Shown here: piece by piece, positions 3,986-9,359 of the stretch | Layout: the number at the start of each line of letters is the position of its first letter | Position numbering within the stretch: the stretch's first letter is position 1 | DNA from: a virus | Taxonomy: Duplodnaviria; Heunggongvirae; Uroviricota; Caudoviricetes | IMG/VR virus record: IMGVR_UViG_2778261300_000008 | DNA length: 10,613 bases | Strand: one strand, 5' to 3' | Notes under the pieces: generated by a model | What the model was told of the DNA's origin: nothing | Seen by the model: the letters and a program-made list of their open reading frames with translations, nothing else | The model's database searches: none | Made by a program: the position numbers and the translations under genes

Positions 3986-4660
3986 ATGAAAACAATCCAT
4001 GACATCCGGCGGTCTAACGCCAGAAAACTGAGAGATGGTGTTGGCGGGAATTCTTCCTTTGCCACTATGATTGATCGCGAGCCAACCCAGACCAGCAGGT
4101 TTATGGGAGATGGTGCTACTAAAAATATCGGTGACAGCATGGCACGACACATCGAAAAATGTTTCGACCTGCCTGTCGGATGGCTCGATCAAGAACACCA
4201 GACAACGAACATCACAAAAAAACCTGATGTTTCAATCACTAATAAACAAATCACATTAGTCCCTGTCATATCATGGGTACAGGCCGGAGCATGGAAAGAA
4301 GTTGGATATTCTGAGGTTGATTTGAGCACAGCAGAAACGTATCCCTGCCCTGTACCCTGTGGGGAAATGACTTATATCTTGCGGGTGATAGGTGATTCAA
4401 TGATTGATGAGTACCGCCCGGGAGACATGATTTTTGTCGATCCTGAAGTACCTGCCTGCCACGGTGACGACGTTATTGCATTGATGCACGATACAGGTGA
4501 AACCACCTTCAAAAGGTTGATAGAAGATGGGACACAGCGTTATCTCAAAGCGTTAAACCCAAACTGGCCTGAGCCTTACATTAAGATCAACGGTAATTGC
4601 TCTATAATTGGTACAGTGATTTTCTCAGGAAAACCAAGAAGATACAAAATCAAAGCCTAA
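3986..4660 (+). CDS. CI/C2-like prophage repressor with C-terminal S24 (LexA-type) peptidase domain
   Basis: The C-terminal half (VISWVQAGAWKEV...VIGDSMIDEYRPGDMIFVDPEV...TTFKRL...LNPNWPEPYIKINGNCSIIGTV) resembles the P22 C2 and lambda CI autocleavage domain, with an Ala-Gly site, a GDSM serine and an FKRL lysine. The N-terminal domain is diverged, there is no Shine-Dalgarno upstream, and an intrinsic terminator follows. Confidence 0.85.
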   Translation: MKTIHDIRRSNARKLRDGVGGNSSFATMIDREPTQTSRFMGDGATKNIGDSMARHIEKCFDLPVGWLDQEHQTTNITKKPDVSITNKQITLVPVISWVQAGAWKEVGYSEVDLSTAETYPCPVPCGEMTYILRVIGDSMIDEYRPGDMIFVDPEVPACHGDDVIALMHDTGETTFKRLIEDGTQRYLKALNPNWPEPYIKINGNCSIIGTVIFSGKPRRYKIKA

Positions 4661-4672
4661 TCAATGTTTATG

Positions 4673-4697
4673 AACCTGCTTCGGCAGGTTTTTTTAT
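4673..4697 (+). terminator. Intrinsic terminator of the repressor gene
   Basis: Stem AACCTGC, loop TTCG, stem GCAGGTT, then TTTTTAT, starting 13 bp after the cI stop. Confidence 0.7.
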
Positions 4698-4699
4698 AC

Positions 4700-4732
4700 T
4701 TGACAATGTACCTTTGAGATACATAATGTACC
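4700..4732 (+). promoter_or_regulatory. pL-like early-left promoter with overlapping operators (OL-like)
   Basis: TTGACA (4700-4705), a 16-bp spacer and CATAAT (4722-4727). The 11-bp perfect palindrome TACATAATGTA (4720-4730) overlaps the -10, and ATGTACC occurs at both 4706-4712 and 4726-4732, sharing the TGTAC core with the OR palindromes. Confidence 0.55.
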
Positions 4733-4853
4733 CAAGCGAAACAACGAACAGTCAGGACGCCCACGAAGTAGCCGCCTGGGGCATATGAAGTCCAGGATGA
4801 TTCGTTGAGTCATGTTGTGCCACTAGGCACTCATGTTAAAGCAGGTGTATGAA

Positions 4854-5129
4854 ATGAAAGTCCAGATTTTAAACAATAACTGTGAAGTCGTTTGGTCATA
4901 CGACATAGCCACCCCTGTAGATCAGAGCGGCGATAGCTGGACCAATGGGAAACATCAGATTATGGCTGGAGTTGTGTTCTCTTTACGCCGTGCTTTGGAA
5001 CAGGCTGAAGTATTTCCATCAGACCCTGAATGGAAATGGCCTTTTTCTATTTGTCCAAATTCGGAGAGCACATTTCAGAAAATTGGTCAGAAAGTCGCAC
5101 TCGAAGAGCATCAGCCAACTGTTTCCTGA
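4854..5129 (+). CDS. Hypothetical protein, first ORF downstream of pL (not N-like)
   Basis: AGGTG lies 6 nt upstream of the ATG at 4854 (the ORF track starts at 4833). The product is not arginine-rich and is unrecognised. Its 3' end overlaps the convergent ORF 5047..5292 by 83 nt, so one of the two may be spurious. Confidence 0.35.
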   Translation: MKVQILNNNCEVVWSYDIATPVDQSGDSWTNGKHQIMAGVVFSLRRALEQAEVFPSDPEWKWPFSICPNSESTFQKIGQKVALEEHQPTVS

Positions 5130-5292
5130 TTTTTTCAGGTAACTCGTCGGCATCGCAGAAACAACAACGCTCGATCATGTTGAAAGCCGATTCGTAGAAC
5201 TGTTTCTGCTGAGTGTCGCTGAGACAGGAAAAGAGCGACGTTACGATGATTTTATTAATTGCATTATCAAGTTCTTTTTCATCAAAAGTCAT
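5047..5292 (-). CDS. Hypothetical small Cys-containing protein, antisense to the pL transcript
   Basis: 81-aa ORF with AAGGA 8 nt upstream of the ATG. The composition is protein-like (helical, five Cys including a CCFC motif), the local DNA is AT-rich, and I do not recognise the product. Confidence 0.4.
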   Translation of the reverse strand: MTFDEKELDNAINKIIVTSLFSCLSDTQQKQFYESAFNMIERCCFCDADELPEKIRKQLADALRVRLSDQFSEMCSPNLDK

Positions 5293-5545
5293 TTGATTTT
5301 CCTTTTATGTATACGGGCTTAAAAGGATACCACCGAGCCTGAAGTGGTGAAAAGACAGGCACATAACAGCTAAGTATTTTCAACCAGAGAGAATCCTTAG
5401 CGTTGTGGTGAATGCGGCTCAGCGCACGCGGGTTAAGGTTGAAGCTGACAGTCGACCTTCTGTGAATACCCACCCGCCTGGTGTGCAACCTTCGCCAGGC
5501 ACCGGGAGGCACCCGGCACCACAACTTTATGCTGTGAGTAGTCCT

Positions 5546-5592
5546 GGCGGTACCAGCTTGTACCATTGCTTCCGGCTGGTACCGTCCTTTTT
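5546..5592 (+). terminator. Strong intrinsic terminator in the pL-operon path
   Basis: 12-bp stem GGCGGTACCAGC (5546-5557) pairs with GCTGGTACCGTC (5575-5586), with one G-U pair, around a 17-nt loop, followed by CTTTTTA. The loop contains CTTGTACC, identical to an OR operator half-site. Confidence 0.6.
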
Positions 5593-5681
5593 ACAAAACA
5601 GAGAAGAGCATCACCGGACGACGGGCTCATAACCCAATCCATCCGGGCGGCTGCCACCGCAGGTGTTCTTCTCTGTTTTGT
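5593..5681. repeat. 15-bp perfect inverted repeat flanking a 59-bp GC-rich spacer
   Basis: ACAAAACAGAGAAGA (5593-5607) and TCTTCTCTGTTTTGT (5667-5681); the pairing extends imperfectly to about 20 bp with wobbles. It lies directly after the terminator and about 50 bp before the yfdP-like start. Confidence 0.6.
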
Positions 5682-5729
5682 GGAGAAACTAACCGACCTT
5701 ACAGGGTCGATATGATGAGGAGCAGCAAA

Positions 5730-6092
5730 ATGGCTAGCGAACGCAGTACTGATGTGCAGGCATTTATCGGGGAGCTGGACGGCGGCGTATTTGAAACCAA
5801 AATCGGCGCAGTTCTCAGTGAAGTCGCTTCCGGTGTGATGAACACGAAAACCAAAGGTAAGGTCTCACTCAACCTGGAAATCGAACCATTTGATGAGAAC
5901 CGTGTGAAAATCAAACACAAACTCTCATATGTTCGCCCGACTAACCGCGGGAAAATTTCCGAAGAAGACACCACCGAAACGCCGATGTATGTCAATCGCG
6001 GTGGTCGCCTGACTATTCTGCAGGAAGACCAGGGACAATTACTGACTCTTGCCGGTGAACCTGACGGAAAACTCCGCGCAGCAGGTCATTAA
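5730..6092 (+). CDS. YfdP-like prophage protein of unknown function
   Basis: GAGGAG lies 8 nt upstream of the ATG at 5730 and falls inside the ORF-track N-terminal extension, so 5730 is the likelier start. The resulting 120-aa product MASERSTDVQAFIGELDGG... matches my recollection of KplE1/CPS-53 YfdP in size and sequence. Confidence 0.65.
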   Translation: MASERSTDVQAFIGELDGGVFETKIGAVLSEVASGVMNTKTKGKVSLNLEIEPFDENRVKIKHKLSYVRPTNRGKISEEDTTETPMYVNRGGRLTILQEDQGQLLTLAGEPDGKLRAAGH

Positions 6093-6157
6093 TATCGTTC
6101 TTAATTAACTGATTATTTATCTCATCACTGAATATCTTTATATAGTGAGGACTTATT

Positions 6158-6982
6158 ATGTCTCAGAACTTAGACGCAACCGCAATTAATCAAATCCATG
6201 CCCTTATTTCTGCTCAGGGTGTTAATGAAATTATCAGTAAGATTGGTGCCGATGCTGTGGCATTGCCTGAGAATTTCCGCATTCATGATCTGGAAAAATT
6301 TAATTTAAATCGCTTCCGTTTCCGTGGTGCGCTTTCCACTGCCAGCATCGATGACTTTACCCGTTATTCTAAAGATCTTGCAGATGAAGGCACCCGCTGC
6401 TTTATCGATGCTGATAATATGCGAGCCGTCAGTGTGCTTAACCTGGGTACTATTGATGAACCAGGTCACGCAGATAACACCGCCACTCTCAAACTGAAAA
6501 AGACAGCACCGTTCTCTGCCCTGTTGTCTGTTAACGGCGAGCGTAACTCCCAGAAGTCACTGGCAGAATGGATTGAAGACTGGGCCGACTACCTTGTGGG
6601 CTTTGATGCTAATGGTGACGCCATTCAGGCAACAAAAGCGGCTGCGGCGGTCCGTAAAATCACGATTGAAGCAAACCAGACCGCTGATTTTGAAGACAAT
6701 GACTTCAGCGGCAAACGCTCTCTGATGGAGTCTGTCGAAGCGAAAACCAAAGACATTATGCCAGTAGCATTTGAGTTTAAATGCGTTCCGTTTGAAGGCC
6801 TGAAAGAACGTCCGTTTAAATTACGCCTCAGCATTATCACTGGTGATCGCCCTGTACTGGTTCTGCGCATTATTCAGCTGGAAGCAGTACAGGAAGAAAT
6901 GGCTAACGAATTTCGTAATCTGCTTGTTGAAAAATTCAAAGACAGCAAAGTAGAAACCTTTATTGGTACTTTCACCGCCTGA
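6158..6982 (+). CDS. yfdQ: YfdQ-like protein (DUF2303 family)
   Basis: 274-aa ORF with GAGGA upstream of the ATG. Size and sequence character match recalled YfdQ of the E. coli KplE1/CPS-53 prophage, and a hairpin terminator follows. Confidence 0.75.
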
Positions 6983-6994
6983 TTTCATTACTGC

Positions 6995-7018
6995 AAATGC
7001 CCCTGCGGGGGCATTTAT
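6995..7018. terminator. Hairpin terminator after the yfdQ-like gene
   Basis: AAATGCCCC (6995-7003) pairs with GGGGCATTT around a TGCG-type loop, flanked by an A-tract and a T-tract, 13 bp after the stop. Confidence 0.55.
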
Positions 7019-7109
7019 GGAAACGTAATTAACTCAATAATCGCCTGATGGCGAGGGTTTTCTTTAACCAAAATTCAGCGCGGTGCAGCGCATATACGTG
7101 GAGAACAAA

Positions 7110-7646
7110 ATGTCATTTATTAAAACTTTTTCCGGGAAGCATTTTTATTATGACAGGATAAATAAAGACGACATCGATATTAACGATATCGCGGTTTCCC
7201 TTTCAAATATCTGTCGCTTTGCCGGTCATCTTTCGCACTTCTACAGCGTCGCCCAACATGCGGTTCTTTGCAGCCAGTTGGTGCCGCAGGAATTTGCTTT
7301 TGAAGCGTTAATGCATGATGCAACAGAAGCGTATTGCCAGGACATTCCCGCACCACTGAAACGCCTTCTTCCTGACTATAAACAAATGGAAGAAAAAATA
7401 GACGCCGTAATCCGTGAGAAATACGGGTTACCCCCAGTTATGAGTACGCCCGTGAAATATGCCGATCTCATCATGCTGGCAACCGAACGCCGCGATCTCG
7501 GGCTTGATGATGGCTCTTTCTGGCCTGTACTGGAAGGTATCCCGGCAACAGAGATGTTCAACGTGATTCCACTGGCACCGGGCCATGCCTACGGGATGTT
7601 TATGGAACGCTTTAACGAGTTATCGGAGTTACGCAAATGCGCATGA
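7110..7646 (+). CDS. yfdR: YfdR-like HD-domain phosphohydrolase
   Basis: An H...HD motif is present (AQHAVLCSQLV...EALMHDATEAYCQD). The product from MSFIKTFSGKHFYYD is 178 aa with GGAG upstream, matching recalled K-12 YfdR. The ORF track begins 27 nt earlier at 7083. Confidence 0.8.
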   Translation: MSFIKTFSGKHFYYDRINKDDIDINDIAVSLSNICRFAGHLSHFYSVAQHAVLCSQLVPQEFAFEALMHDATEAYCQDIPAPLKRLLPDYKQMEEKIDAVIREKYGLPPVMSTPVKYADLIMLATERRDLGLDDGSFWPVLEGIPATEMFNVIPLAPGHAYGMFMERFNELSELRKCA

Positions 7647-7960
7647 ATGTTTTCGAAATGGAAGGGTTTCTTCGTGGGAGATGTGTACCGCGAGATCTGA
7701 AAGTAAATGAAACAGATGCTGAATACCTGGTGCGTAAATTCGATGCGCTTGAAGCTAAATGTGCAGCACAGGAAAACAAAGTAATACCAGTGTCAACTGA
7801 ACTGCCACCAGCAAATGAAAGTGTTTTGTTATTCGATGCTAACGGAGAAGGCTGGCTAATTGGTTGGCGTTCTCTCTGGTACACCTGGGGACAAAAAGAA
7901 ACCGGAGAATGGCAGTGGACATTTCAGGTCTTCAGTCTCCGCTGCATACTGTCCAGGTGA
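7637..7960 (+). CDS. YfdS-like hypothetical protein immediately upstream of int (possibly truncated)
   Basis: 107-aa ORF with GGAG 8 nt upstream; an alternative ATG at 7643 makes an ATGA overlap with the yfdR-like stop. It is mildly acidic and lacks an obvious HTH, so it does not look like a typical excisionase. Confidence 0.5.
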   Translation: MRMNVFEMEGFLRGRCVPRDLKVNETDAEYLVRKFDALEAKCAAQENKVIPVSTELPPANESVLLFDANGEGWLIGWRSLWYTWGQKETGEWQWTFQVFSLRCILSR

Positions 7961-7991
7961 GCGCGGGTGATGGCATAACAGAGGAAAGAAA

Positions 7992-9155
7992 ATGTCACTC
8001 TTCCGCAGAGGTGAAATATGGTACGCCAGTTTCACATTGCCGAACGGTAAAAGATTTAAACAGTCTCTTGGAACAAAGGACAAAAGGCAGGCGACAGAAC
8101 TCCATGACAAGCTAAAGGCTGAAGCATGGCGGGTCAGCAAACTTGGTGAAATACCTGATATAACGTTCGAGGAAGCGTGTGTCAGGTGGCTTGAAGAGAA
8201 AGCACATAAAAAATCACTGGACGATGACAAAAGCCGGATCGGATTCTGGCTTCAACATTTCGCAGGAATGCAACTAAGAGACATTACTGAATCAAAAATT
8301 TATTCAGCAATGCAGAAAATGACGAACCGGCGTCATGAGGAAAACTGGAGACTCAGGGCAGAAGCATGCAGAAAAAAAGGGAAACCTGTTCCAGAATACA
8401 CGCCAAAACCAGCGTCCGTTGCAACGAAGGCTACGCATCTTTCATTTATAAAGGCCCTACTAAGAGCCGCAGAGCGTGAATGGAAAATGCTGGATAAGGC
8501 ACCAATTATTAAAGTGCCTCAACCAAAGAATAAACGGATCCGCTGGCTGGAGCCCCATGAAGCACAAAGGCTGATTGATGAATGTCCGGAGCCATTAAAG
8601 TCTGTTGTTGAATTTGCACTGGCAACAGGCTTAAGACGCTCGAACATCATCAACCTTGAATGGCAACAAATAGACATGCAGCGCCGGGTGGCATGGATAA
8701 ACCCGGAAGAGAGTAAATCAAACCGCGCAATTGGCGTTGCGCTGAATGATACTGCATGTCGCGTTTTGAAAAAACAAATCGGGAATCATCACCGTTGGGT
8801 ATTTGTGTACAAGGAAAGCTGTACCAAACCAGACGGAACGAAAGCGCCAACAGTAAGGAAGATGCGGTATGACGCAAACACAGCCTGGAAAGCGGCGCTG
8901 AGACGGGCTGGTATTGATGATTTCAGATTTCACGACTTGAGACACACCTGGGCAAGTTGGCTGGTTCAAGCCGGAGTCCCGTTGTCAGTGTTACAGGAAA
9001 TGGGAGGCTGGGAGTCTATCGAAATGGTTCGTCGATATGCTCACCTTGCACCTAATCACCTTACCGAACACGCACGGCAAATAGACTCGATCCTGAACCC
9101 ATCGGTCCCAAATTCGTCCCAGTCAAAAAATAAGGAAGGTACTAATGATGTGTAA
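7992..9155 (+). CDS. int: Tyrosine integrase, P22 Int type
   Basis: 387-aa product [48 protein letters not shown]...[39 protein letters not shown] closely matches recalled P22 Int, including the catalytic R...HxxR...Y box. GAGGAAAG precedes the ATG, and the stop lies 15 nt from the tRNA 3' end. Confidence 0.95.
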
Positions 9156-9170
9156 CTTATTGATTTAAAT

Positions 9171-9246
9171 GGTGCCGATAATAGGAGTCGAACCTACGAC
9201 CTTCGCATTACGAATGCGCTGCTCTACCAACTGAGCTATATCGGCC
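9171..9246 (-). tRNA. thrW: tRNA-Thr (anticodon CGU)
   Basis: The minus strand reads GCCGATATAGCTCAGTTGGTAGAGCAGCGCATTCGTAATGCGAAGGTCGTAGGTTCGACTCCTATTATCGGCACCA, a 76-nt cloverleaf with a TTCGACT T-loop, anticodon CGT and encoded CCA. P22 Int-type elements are known to target thrW. Confidence 0.92.
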
Positions 9247-9359
9247 CTGAAAGGACATGTTCACGAACGTGAATCACGGTGGACAAGGTTAAAACTAACC
9301 GGGCGATGCGTCAATGGCCTTGTGAATCAAATGGCTACTTTTGCATCACCCGGTTTTAT

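Follow-up and report, generated by a model that had tools for sequence, protein, structure and literature searches.

STnc100 (RF02076) is a family of small RNAs carried by prophages, which includes EcOnc27/sRNA103 of E. coli O157 and has a relative, PasD, in EPEC. EcOnc27/sRNA103 and PasD are sRNAs bound by Hfq and verified by Northern blot (PMC12711010, PMC8550237, PMC5331693). Members of the family are expressed in lysogens, with Northern verification and with Hfq dependence or Hfq binding (PMC5331693, PMC8550237, PMC12711010, bioRxiv 10.64898/2026.05.13.724894), and they accumulate as stable Hfq-dependent RNAs (PMC8550237). The canonical copies are found in the late region, near Q, stx2B and the lysis genes (PMC12370729, PMC12711010 and the same preprint).

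Here we describe an RNA named M2, along with two other RNA structures, M1 and M3, in a window of 10,613 nt (IMG/VR record IMGVR_UViG_2778261300_000008), which is the whole stretch of DNA that was analysed and to which all positions refer unless otherwise indicated. M2 is prophage-borne like STnc100, and shares with it the P1 closing helix, the GGUGAAU motif, the invariant CACCGGGAGGCACCCGGCACCA, a P5 hairpin with CACCGGGAGGCACCCGGCACC and a following terminator. It differs in the P2 hairpin, which is replaced, with GCGGCUCAGCGCACGC instead of CCCCU..AGGGG; compared with canonical copies, the P0 hairpin is additional and the conserved linker is not the same, and M2 is located in an early-left operon leader, and not in the late region with Q, stx or the lysis genes nearby. 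Judged from its sequence, M2 is a divergent, sub-threshold member of the STnc100/PasD/EcOnc27 family of prophage sRNAs.

Two other systems resemble M2 in part. DicF, from the dicB operon of prophage Qin, likewise belongs to an early operon under repressor control in a lambdoid prophage, and is a small RNA that has a terminator of its own. It is about 53 nt long and is made by RNase E/III processing, whereas M2 is four times its size and highly structured, and there is no sequence relationship between them (Rfam DicF 14.2 bits, E 5.5); in the ban leader of phage P1, an M2-type core occurs together with a dicF-like region. The eps-associated RNA (EAR) of Bacillales is a pseudoknotted RNA of about 120 nt in a long operon, with terminators after it. 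The pseudoknot, the long operon and the following terminators are parallels to M2, but phylum and sequence are unrelated, and the likeness is architectural.

In lambda, an RNase III-sensitive hairpin is found at the N-leader position, together with nutL. M3 likewise places a long, near-perfect dsRNA stem immediately ahead of the first early-left gene, within the leader; in contrast to the lambda leader, boxA/boxB and N are absent, and M3 forms a three-way junction with an invariant inner loop. The lambda sib site, proposed as an analogue in the initial annotation of the locus, lies beyond int and acts in retroregulation, a position unlike that of M3, and the N-leader hairpin is the better positional counterpart. 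The put RNAs of HK022 and HK639 also belong to N-less lambdoid phages and form structured RNAs straight after PL, with terminators downstream. The GGAUGA motif is common to M1 and the putL apical loop, but homology between put and M1 was undetected by covariance model and motif search; M1 has a closed two-helix architecture, unlike put stems I and II, and is single, whereas put has a PR-side partner.

Genetic organization of the early-left region

The window is a lambdoid, SfV-like prophage integrated at the tRNA-Thr(CGU) gene thrW, adjoining proA. The closest phage is Shigella phage SfV, with 97.6% identity across the 5293-5729 region. This region was found in 2787 of 5426 complete E. coli genomes, and also in Shigella, Salmonella, Klebsiella and Cronobacter phages. 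Where it carries any annotation, this is as a hypothetical or frameshifted protein.

The operator pattern TGTAC-N7-GTACA occurs at only three sites (3902, 3952 and 4707; chance expectation 0.14), two between ymfK and ymfT (OR) and one across the promoter that follows ymfK (Table 1). The operator at this promoter, and the few sites expected by chance, indicate that it is the equivalent of PL, and the 5293-5729 region therefore sits in the leader of the early-left operon. The corresponding position in lambda is occupied by nutL and N. No N-like protein was found between PL and int; the orf98 product is not arginine-rich and had no Pfam match. The lack of a visible N/nut system pointed out in the initial annotation thus holds for N, although a conserved promoter-proximal RNA, M1, had been overlooked.

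The whole region is the non-coding leader of the prophage early-left (PL) operon, and contains two independent conserved RNA modules on the + strand, M2 (5369-5592) and M3 (5593-5729). The start of yfdP was placed at ATG 5730, based on the length of the K-12 yfdP gene, with GAGGAG as its Shine-Dalgarno sequence (SD).

Table 1. Features of the prophage early-left region in the window.
Feature	Position	Strand	Description
ymfL and ymfT/cro		leftward	First in the gene order of the window
ymfK	3986-4660	+	LexA-family cI-like repressor; followed by its own terminator, 4672-4691
PL	4700-4727	+	TTGACA-16-CATAAT, near-consensus; overlapped by operator 4707-4723
M1	4738-4809	+	Conserved structured RNA immediately 3' of PL; outside 5293-5729
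orf98 (= SfV orf33)	4833-5129	+	Between PL and the non-coding region
orf81	5047-5292	-	81 aa; between PL and the non-coding region
Promoter and 5'UTR of orf81 (probable)	5293-5368	-	Read from the sequence
P0 hairpin	5369-5401	+	13-nt arms, 85% complementarity; in the MFE fold; abuts the M2 core
M2 core	5402-5525	+	STnc100-like multi-helix domain, 124 nt; Rfam match and covariation
P1	5402-5410/5517-5525	+	Closing helix of the M2 core
P2	5413-5416/5423-5426	+	M2 core
P3	about 5429-5433/5472-5476	+	M2 core
P4	5476-5483/5493-5500	+	M2 core
P5	5502-5506/5512-5516	+	M2 core
Pseudoknot	5435-5441 with P4 loop 5486-5492	+	Complementary-run statistics
Linker	5526-5545	+	Single-stranded, UUUAUGCUGUGAGUAGUCCU; unpaired in the centroid fold; candidate seed
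Intrinsic terminator	5546-5592	+	12-bp stem, 17-nt loop, U5
M3 three-way junction	5593-5681	+	MFE -54.7 kcal/mol, z -6.63
M3 outer stem	5593-5612/5662-5681	+	20 bp, consecutive pairs, two of them G-U
Hairpin Ha	5614-5618/5642-5646	+	Carries invariant GACGGGCUCAUAACCCAAUCCA
Hairpin Hb	5647-5650/5657-5660	+	M3 fold
Leader remainder	5682-5729	+	Conserved GGAGAAAC, 5682-5689; small hairpin, 5694-5709; SD, 5717-5722
yfdP, yfdQ, yfdR, 107-aa ORF, int		+	3' of the non-coding region

The initial annotation had described 5293-5711 as non-coding, without a credible ORF, and this was borne out. A Pfam search of the region gave no matches, tblastn "protein" matches were equivalent for frames of both strands, and the lengths of homologous elements cover all mod-3 classes (37/31/26 for the M2 cores; 89-114 nt for M3). 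The translations of the ORFs are rich in Pro, Gly and Arg, as had been stated. The limits of the region were revised, since its end was moved to 5729 and its leftmost ~75 bp were assigned to the promoter and 5'UTR of a leftward ORF; it had also been called GC-rich, and its GC content is raised moderately (0.57 at 5401-5700).

The 5293-5368 block probably serves orf81, the leftward ORF of 81 aa, as its promoter and 5'UTR. The - strand reads TTTTCA-18-(TG)GTATCCT, with TTTTCA as a -35-like element and the extended -10-like TGGTATCCT at 5333-5325, followed by the ribosome binding site AAGGAAAA ahead of the orf81 ATG at 5292. The conserved block extends over 5326-5367 and recurs, with TGGTATACT/TGGTATCTT and accompanied by a leftward ORF, in phiES15 and in contigs L133 and L220. 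The orf98 and orf81 genes are convergent, with overlapping 3' ends, and PGAP annotates the + strand one alone. Homologues of orf98 have diverged (33-40% over residues 1-77), and those of orf81 are represented by a diverged one, 59% identical; as orf98 conservation is limited to its first 77 residues, the true overlap is small.

In K-12, prophage CPS-53 keeps yfdPQRST, and its yfdO-yfdP spacer (L231 1248-1604) is without M2 and M3, so K-12 transcriptomes are uninformative on these two elements. This spacer has in common with the window the last ~25 nt before yfdP, and the rest is repetitive GACGG-rich sequence. On the PR side of ST64B, near sb41/sb42, the Rfam scan detected a C4 antisense RNA (79.7 bits) adjoining isrK (64.3 bits; L125 909-996 and 1021-1097, - strand).

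M2 and its terminator

A relaxed Rfam scan matched M2 to STnc100 with 44.7 bits (E 3.7e-8), over model positions 1-206 of 206, which is below the curated gathering score of 47 bits. The match covers 5372-5594 end to end, and the terminator recognised in the initial annotation aligns to that of the model. A regulated terminator, an RNase III site, an sRNA and a recombination site had been offered there as functions, and the sRNA is the best supported of the four, if as a sub-threshold match. Variants of M2 in phiES15, ST64B and P1 scored 40.6, 35.1 and 33.4, and a canonical STnc100 copy 131.4. The variant subfamily is marked by GAAUGCGGCUNAGCGCACGCGGG and the added P0 hairpin, and all its members fall under the gathering score, so that Rfam-based annotation misses them. 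In SfV, ST64B and Cronobacter phiES15, the subfamily is located between the repressor/PL and the early-left genes; the genes 3' of M2 in phiES15 (kil-gam...xis-int) are unrelated to those of the window.

The structure of M2 is supported by folding and by covariation. None of 200 shuffles folded as well as 5369-5592 (z = -3.57). The hairpins upstream of the terminator mentioned in the initial annotation correspond to P0 (5369-5381/5389-5401) and to the 9-bp perfect pair of P1. A hairpin of different sequence is found at the P0 position in ST64B, phiES15 and P1. An IMG/VR scan with the invariant 22-mer of M2 retrieved at least 120 loci, with 94 distinct cores of 84-135 nt. RNAalifold, applied to 61 diverse copies with the window as first row, recovered P1, P2 and P5 with many double substitutions; 21 columns of this alignment are invariant, and P1 and P5 are kept. 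P4 stems anchored beside P5 have a mean of 7.5 bp, versus 4.5 in shuffles. The pairing is kept with compensatory changes among homologues, the check that had been suggested for the region.

A pseudoknot joins the strand just 3' of P2 to the P4 loop, AAGGUUG with CAACCUU in the window. The complementary run has a mean of 6.57, versus 4.84 +/- 0.11 for permuted partners, and at least 15 distinct sequence pairs occur across copies, such as AAGGCUG/CAGCCUU (phiES15), UGGUUAU/AUAACCA (P1), CCAGUC/GACUGG and AGACUGACA/UGUCAGUCU. The pseudoknot runs through the whole family and is absent from the Rfam STnc100 consensus, and should enter the STnc100 model.

Between P1 and the terminator lies a linker of 20 nt, with the family consensus AUUGCUGUGUGUAGUCUU. 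It is conserved in ST64B, phiES15, L127, L132 and L210 and persists in phages with a shortened or substituted P1-closed domain, which is the pattern expected of a seed, and the linker motif was found within 200 nt upstream of 61 of 127 M3 copies. No target of the linker was found inside the window, where the best duplex (-22.3 kcal/mol) was no better than those of shuffled seeds (mean best -23.3).

The terminator has the 12-bp stem that had been reported, composed of 10-bp perfect arms (5548-5557/5575-5584) plus G5547-U5585 and G5546-C5586, then T5 at 5588-5592, with a hairpin energy of about -22 kcal/mol. In 95 of 117 distinct family copies a terminator is found within 160 nt after the core, with the T-run mostly 31-83 nt 3' of it; the terminator sequences of different copies are unrelated, and the P1 copy has none. 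The CTTGTACC of the loop does match an operator half-site, as had been noticed, but an operator role was rejected: at least four operator types unrelated to one another are found in phages with this loop motif, TGTAC-N7-GTACA is absent here and full operators are found at OR and PL only. The resemblance is coincidental. No sigma-70-like + strand promoter was found between the terminator and int (5600 to 9300), and PL-driven transcription of yfdP...int therefore needs passage through 5546-5592. The suggestion of a regulated terminator is plausible in this respect, whereas regulation by the repressor is without support.

An M2-type core (33.4 bits) is present in phage P1, in the leader of the C1-controlled ban operon (L124 2999-3128; NC_005856.1 about 70075-70204). 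It is located between upl/plp and tciA, without a terminator, amid three tRNA genes and the "dicF-like region", and is absent from the annotation of the record. Arrays of STnc100-type cores were also observed, with four copies in L011 and three tandem copies ~255 nt apart in L019 and L058. In contig L005, a canonical STnc100 copy lies directly 3' of three tRNA genes, on the same strand.

M3, a conserved three-way junction

The perfect inverted repeat of the initial annotation (5593-5607/5667-5681) was recovered and extends to 25-nt arms with 84% complementarity. Folding of 5593-5711 was matched by none of 200 shuffles (z = -6.63). The inner motif GACGGGCUCAUWACCCAAUCCA was found at at least 120 viral loci, in 56 distinct versions. 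Among these versions, pairing was kept in 96.1% of cells, versus 41-50% with partners slid, and compensatory change affected 10 pairs and 100 cells, with 0 of 500 shuffles reaching the covariation score. Three of the stem pairs are G-U in 18, 14 and 51 rows, respectively; read from the complementary strand, each of these would become an A-C mismatch, indicating that M3 is a + strand RNA. Scans of the window and of M3 found it not to be in Rfam; in the window, the Rfam search that had been proposed identified M2, as a sub-threshold STnc100.

M3 starts almost always directly after a terminator T-run. The first gene 3' of it encodes YfdP in 82 of 108 copies, and RdgC-like, YfdR-like or other proteins in the remainder, while an STnc100-like core is found upstream in only 35 of the 108, which makes M3 a generic leader, independent of M2, for whichever gene opens the early-left operon. 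The sequence of the small hairpin in the leader remainder covaries, and ST64B and others carry a hairpin of different sequence there. Two other roles for M3 were considered and rejected. Most variants are without a U-tract after the stem, as a terminator would have, and for an element of the - strand, that strand folds slightly worse and the G-U pairs favour the + strand. The "M3-like RNA" of the HK639 record, after cII on the PR side, is unrelated to the M3 described here.

M1, a conserved RNA next to PL

At least 120 viral loci carry M1, preceded by promoters and operators of many different types, and 10-20 nt separate its start from the -10 of many unrelated PL-type promoters. Pairing was kept in 95.1% of cells, versus 17-45% when slid, with 192 compensatory cells, and the closing helix and the inner 3-bp helix covary strongly. 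The Rfam scan found no M1 family. Two GGA motifs of M1 (GGC-AGGAC-GCC and CNGGAUGA) resemble CsrA-binding sites.

The M1 covariance model gave a single match each in the window, SfV and ST64B, and none on the PR side. Homology of M1 to put was rejected, since the model was without a match at HK022 putL/putR or HK639 putL, sequences that were also compared by eye, and each phage has M1 only once. M1 and M3 co-occur in about 60% of loci in either direction, 300-1700 nt apart, in a sample that is biased because loci were retrieved by motif. M1 is also present in e14 of K-12 (NC_000913.3 1202109-1202181, - strand; L308 1110-1182), between the ymfK-side promoter and ymfJ, and experiments could therefore be easily set up. 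In the early-left region of HK639, a sequence downstream of the annotated putL-like RNA (L306 about 5700-5790, - strand), ...GGTTCGAATCCGGAGCACTCCACCA, resembles a tRNA 3' half or a tRNA-like end.

Discussion

The reading that we favour, with modest confidence, is that M2 provides an Hfq-type sRNA and a terminator barrier, and is followed by an mRNA leader or processing structure, M3. Transcripts ending at 5592 would yield an RNA of about 190-225 nt, with a putative 5' end, which by homology would be expected to bind Hfq via its terminator and U-tail, and to pair with targets via the conserved linker. The terminator would keep unmodified polymerase from yfdP...xis-int. The M3 20-bp stem and its invariant inner loop would most likely be an RNase III-type processing or stability element, and processing could detach the sRNA from the mRNA and define the 5' end of the latter; in the predicted fold, the stem has the about 20 bp of near-uninterrupted dsRNA of an RNase III site. 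The order of repressor, PL, element and early-left genes, which is also found in ST64B and phiES15, favours this explanation. M2 would extend a clinically discussed sRNA family, with one copy downstream of stx2, to a new genomic context, and M1 and M3 are conserved, covarying RNA structures new to Rfam.

Several observations go against the sRNA reading. No sigma-70-like + strand promoter was found just upstream of M2, and a sigma-54-like GGCAC...GC candidate was rejected because its spacing is wrong (GG-N9-GC). The P1 copy, which has no terminator and abuts tciA, is at odds with a pure Hfq-sRNA model. As an sRNA scaffold, a pseudoknotted core of 124 nt that has near-invariant nucleotides is unusual, the location of M2 is unlike that of the canonical late-region copies, its Rfam score is under the gathering score, and the linker had no target within the window.

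Cis-acting control of transcription is a possible, although rather unlikely, alternative. M1, the STnc100-like core or M3 would bind the elongating polymerase, like HK022 put or Bacillus EAR, and the terminator would be a checkpoint passed only by modified PL polymerase, with any sRNA as a by-product. Such a role is consistent with an operon that encodes no N-like protein between PL and int and that lacks promoters 3' of the terminator, which makes read-through necessary. The start of M1 at 10-20 nt past the -10 of unrelated promoters is like that of putL (PMC9378689), the operon-leader position is kept in ST64B, phiES15 and the P1 ban operon, and the pseudoknotted core has a complex structure and near-invariant residues. 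However, M1 is found in one copy per phage, none of them PR-side, and its model fails to match the known put sites; the M2 22-mer is absent from HK022; and phiES15 and P1 have M2 without M1. M3 cannot aid passage of the terminator because it is located after it, and canonical STnc100 copies are in Q-antiterminated late operons, where this function is unneeded.

Of the two readings, cis-antitermination is the more interesting one. In a broader and still more doubtful form, N-less and put-less phages of the SfV/ST64B/e14 type would run their early-left operon by RNA-only control: M1, the first to be made at PL, would give rise to a terminator-resistant polymerase that overrides the M2 terminator, the terminated product would also serve as an sRNA, the role of M3 would be to process or stabilise the downstream mRNA, and the STnc100 core would bind a factor or the polymerase instead of being a passive scaffold. 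If this were true, a very common "sRNA" family would be a cis-regulatory element too. M1-M3 are testable candidates for how lambdoid phages without N or put pass early terminators.

It is improbable that M2 is a riboswitch-like attenuator, with the pseudoknotted core as the aptamer for a ligand or factor and the linker and terminator as the expression platform. As such a design would have it, 95 of 117 copies have a short linker and then an intrinsic terminator after the core, which contains a pseudoknot and near-invariant nucleotides, and the distance to the T-run is mostly 31-83 nt. Nevertheless, inspection of diverse copies showed no conserved antiterminator pairing of the core with the terminator, the terminators are unrelated among copies and missing from some, tandem arrays of three or four copies occur, and members of the family are stable Hfq-dependent RNAs (PMC8550237).

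A DNA-level element, in which the inverted repeats are a recombination or protein-binding site at a module junction, is very unlikely. A mosaic boundary does exist near 5545, as many phages (Stx2c phages, mEp460) share only 5545-5711, with 95.8% identity, and M2 and M3 assort independently. This exchange of modules is explained by homologous recombination of the ordinary kind at conserved sequence, and neither the repressor operator pattern nor an adjacent recombinase gene is present; the G-U-rich covariation of M3, which would give A-C mismatches on the opposite strand, is that of a + strand RNA, and the recombination site proposed in the initial annotation is not sustained.

Finally, a degraded, frameshifted gene spanning the region, which had been named as the finding that would overturn a non-coding reading, is scarcely credible and was rejected along with an intact one: in a close relative, the stretch equivalent to 5405-5715 is called a "hypothetical protein, frameshifted" by PGAP, and PHROG families phrog_3651 and phrog_33599 match the - strand ORF 5433-5657 and 5566-5715, respectively, but Pfam gave no match, the element lengths are spread across mod-3 classes, frames of either strand match equally well, the translations are Pro/Gly/Arg-rich, and the helices are preserved via compensatory and G-U changes. 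The best explanation of the PGAP and PHROG entries is that ORFs were called on top of conserved RNA. The PGAP call (L001 6113-6423) and phrog_3651, phrog_33599 and phrog_36251 are likely annotation artefacts that propagate.
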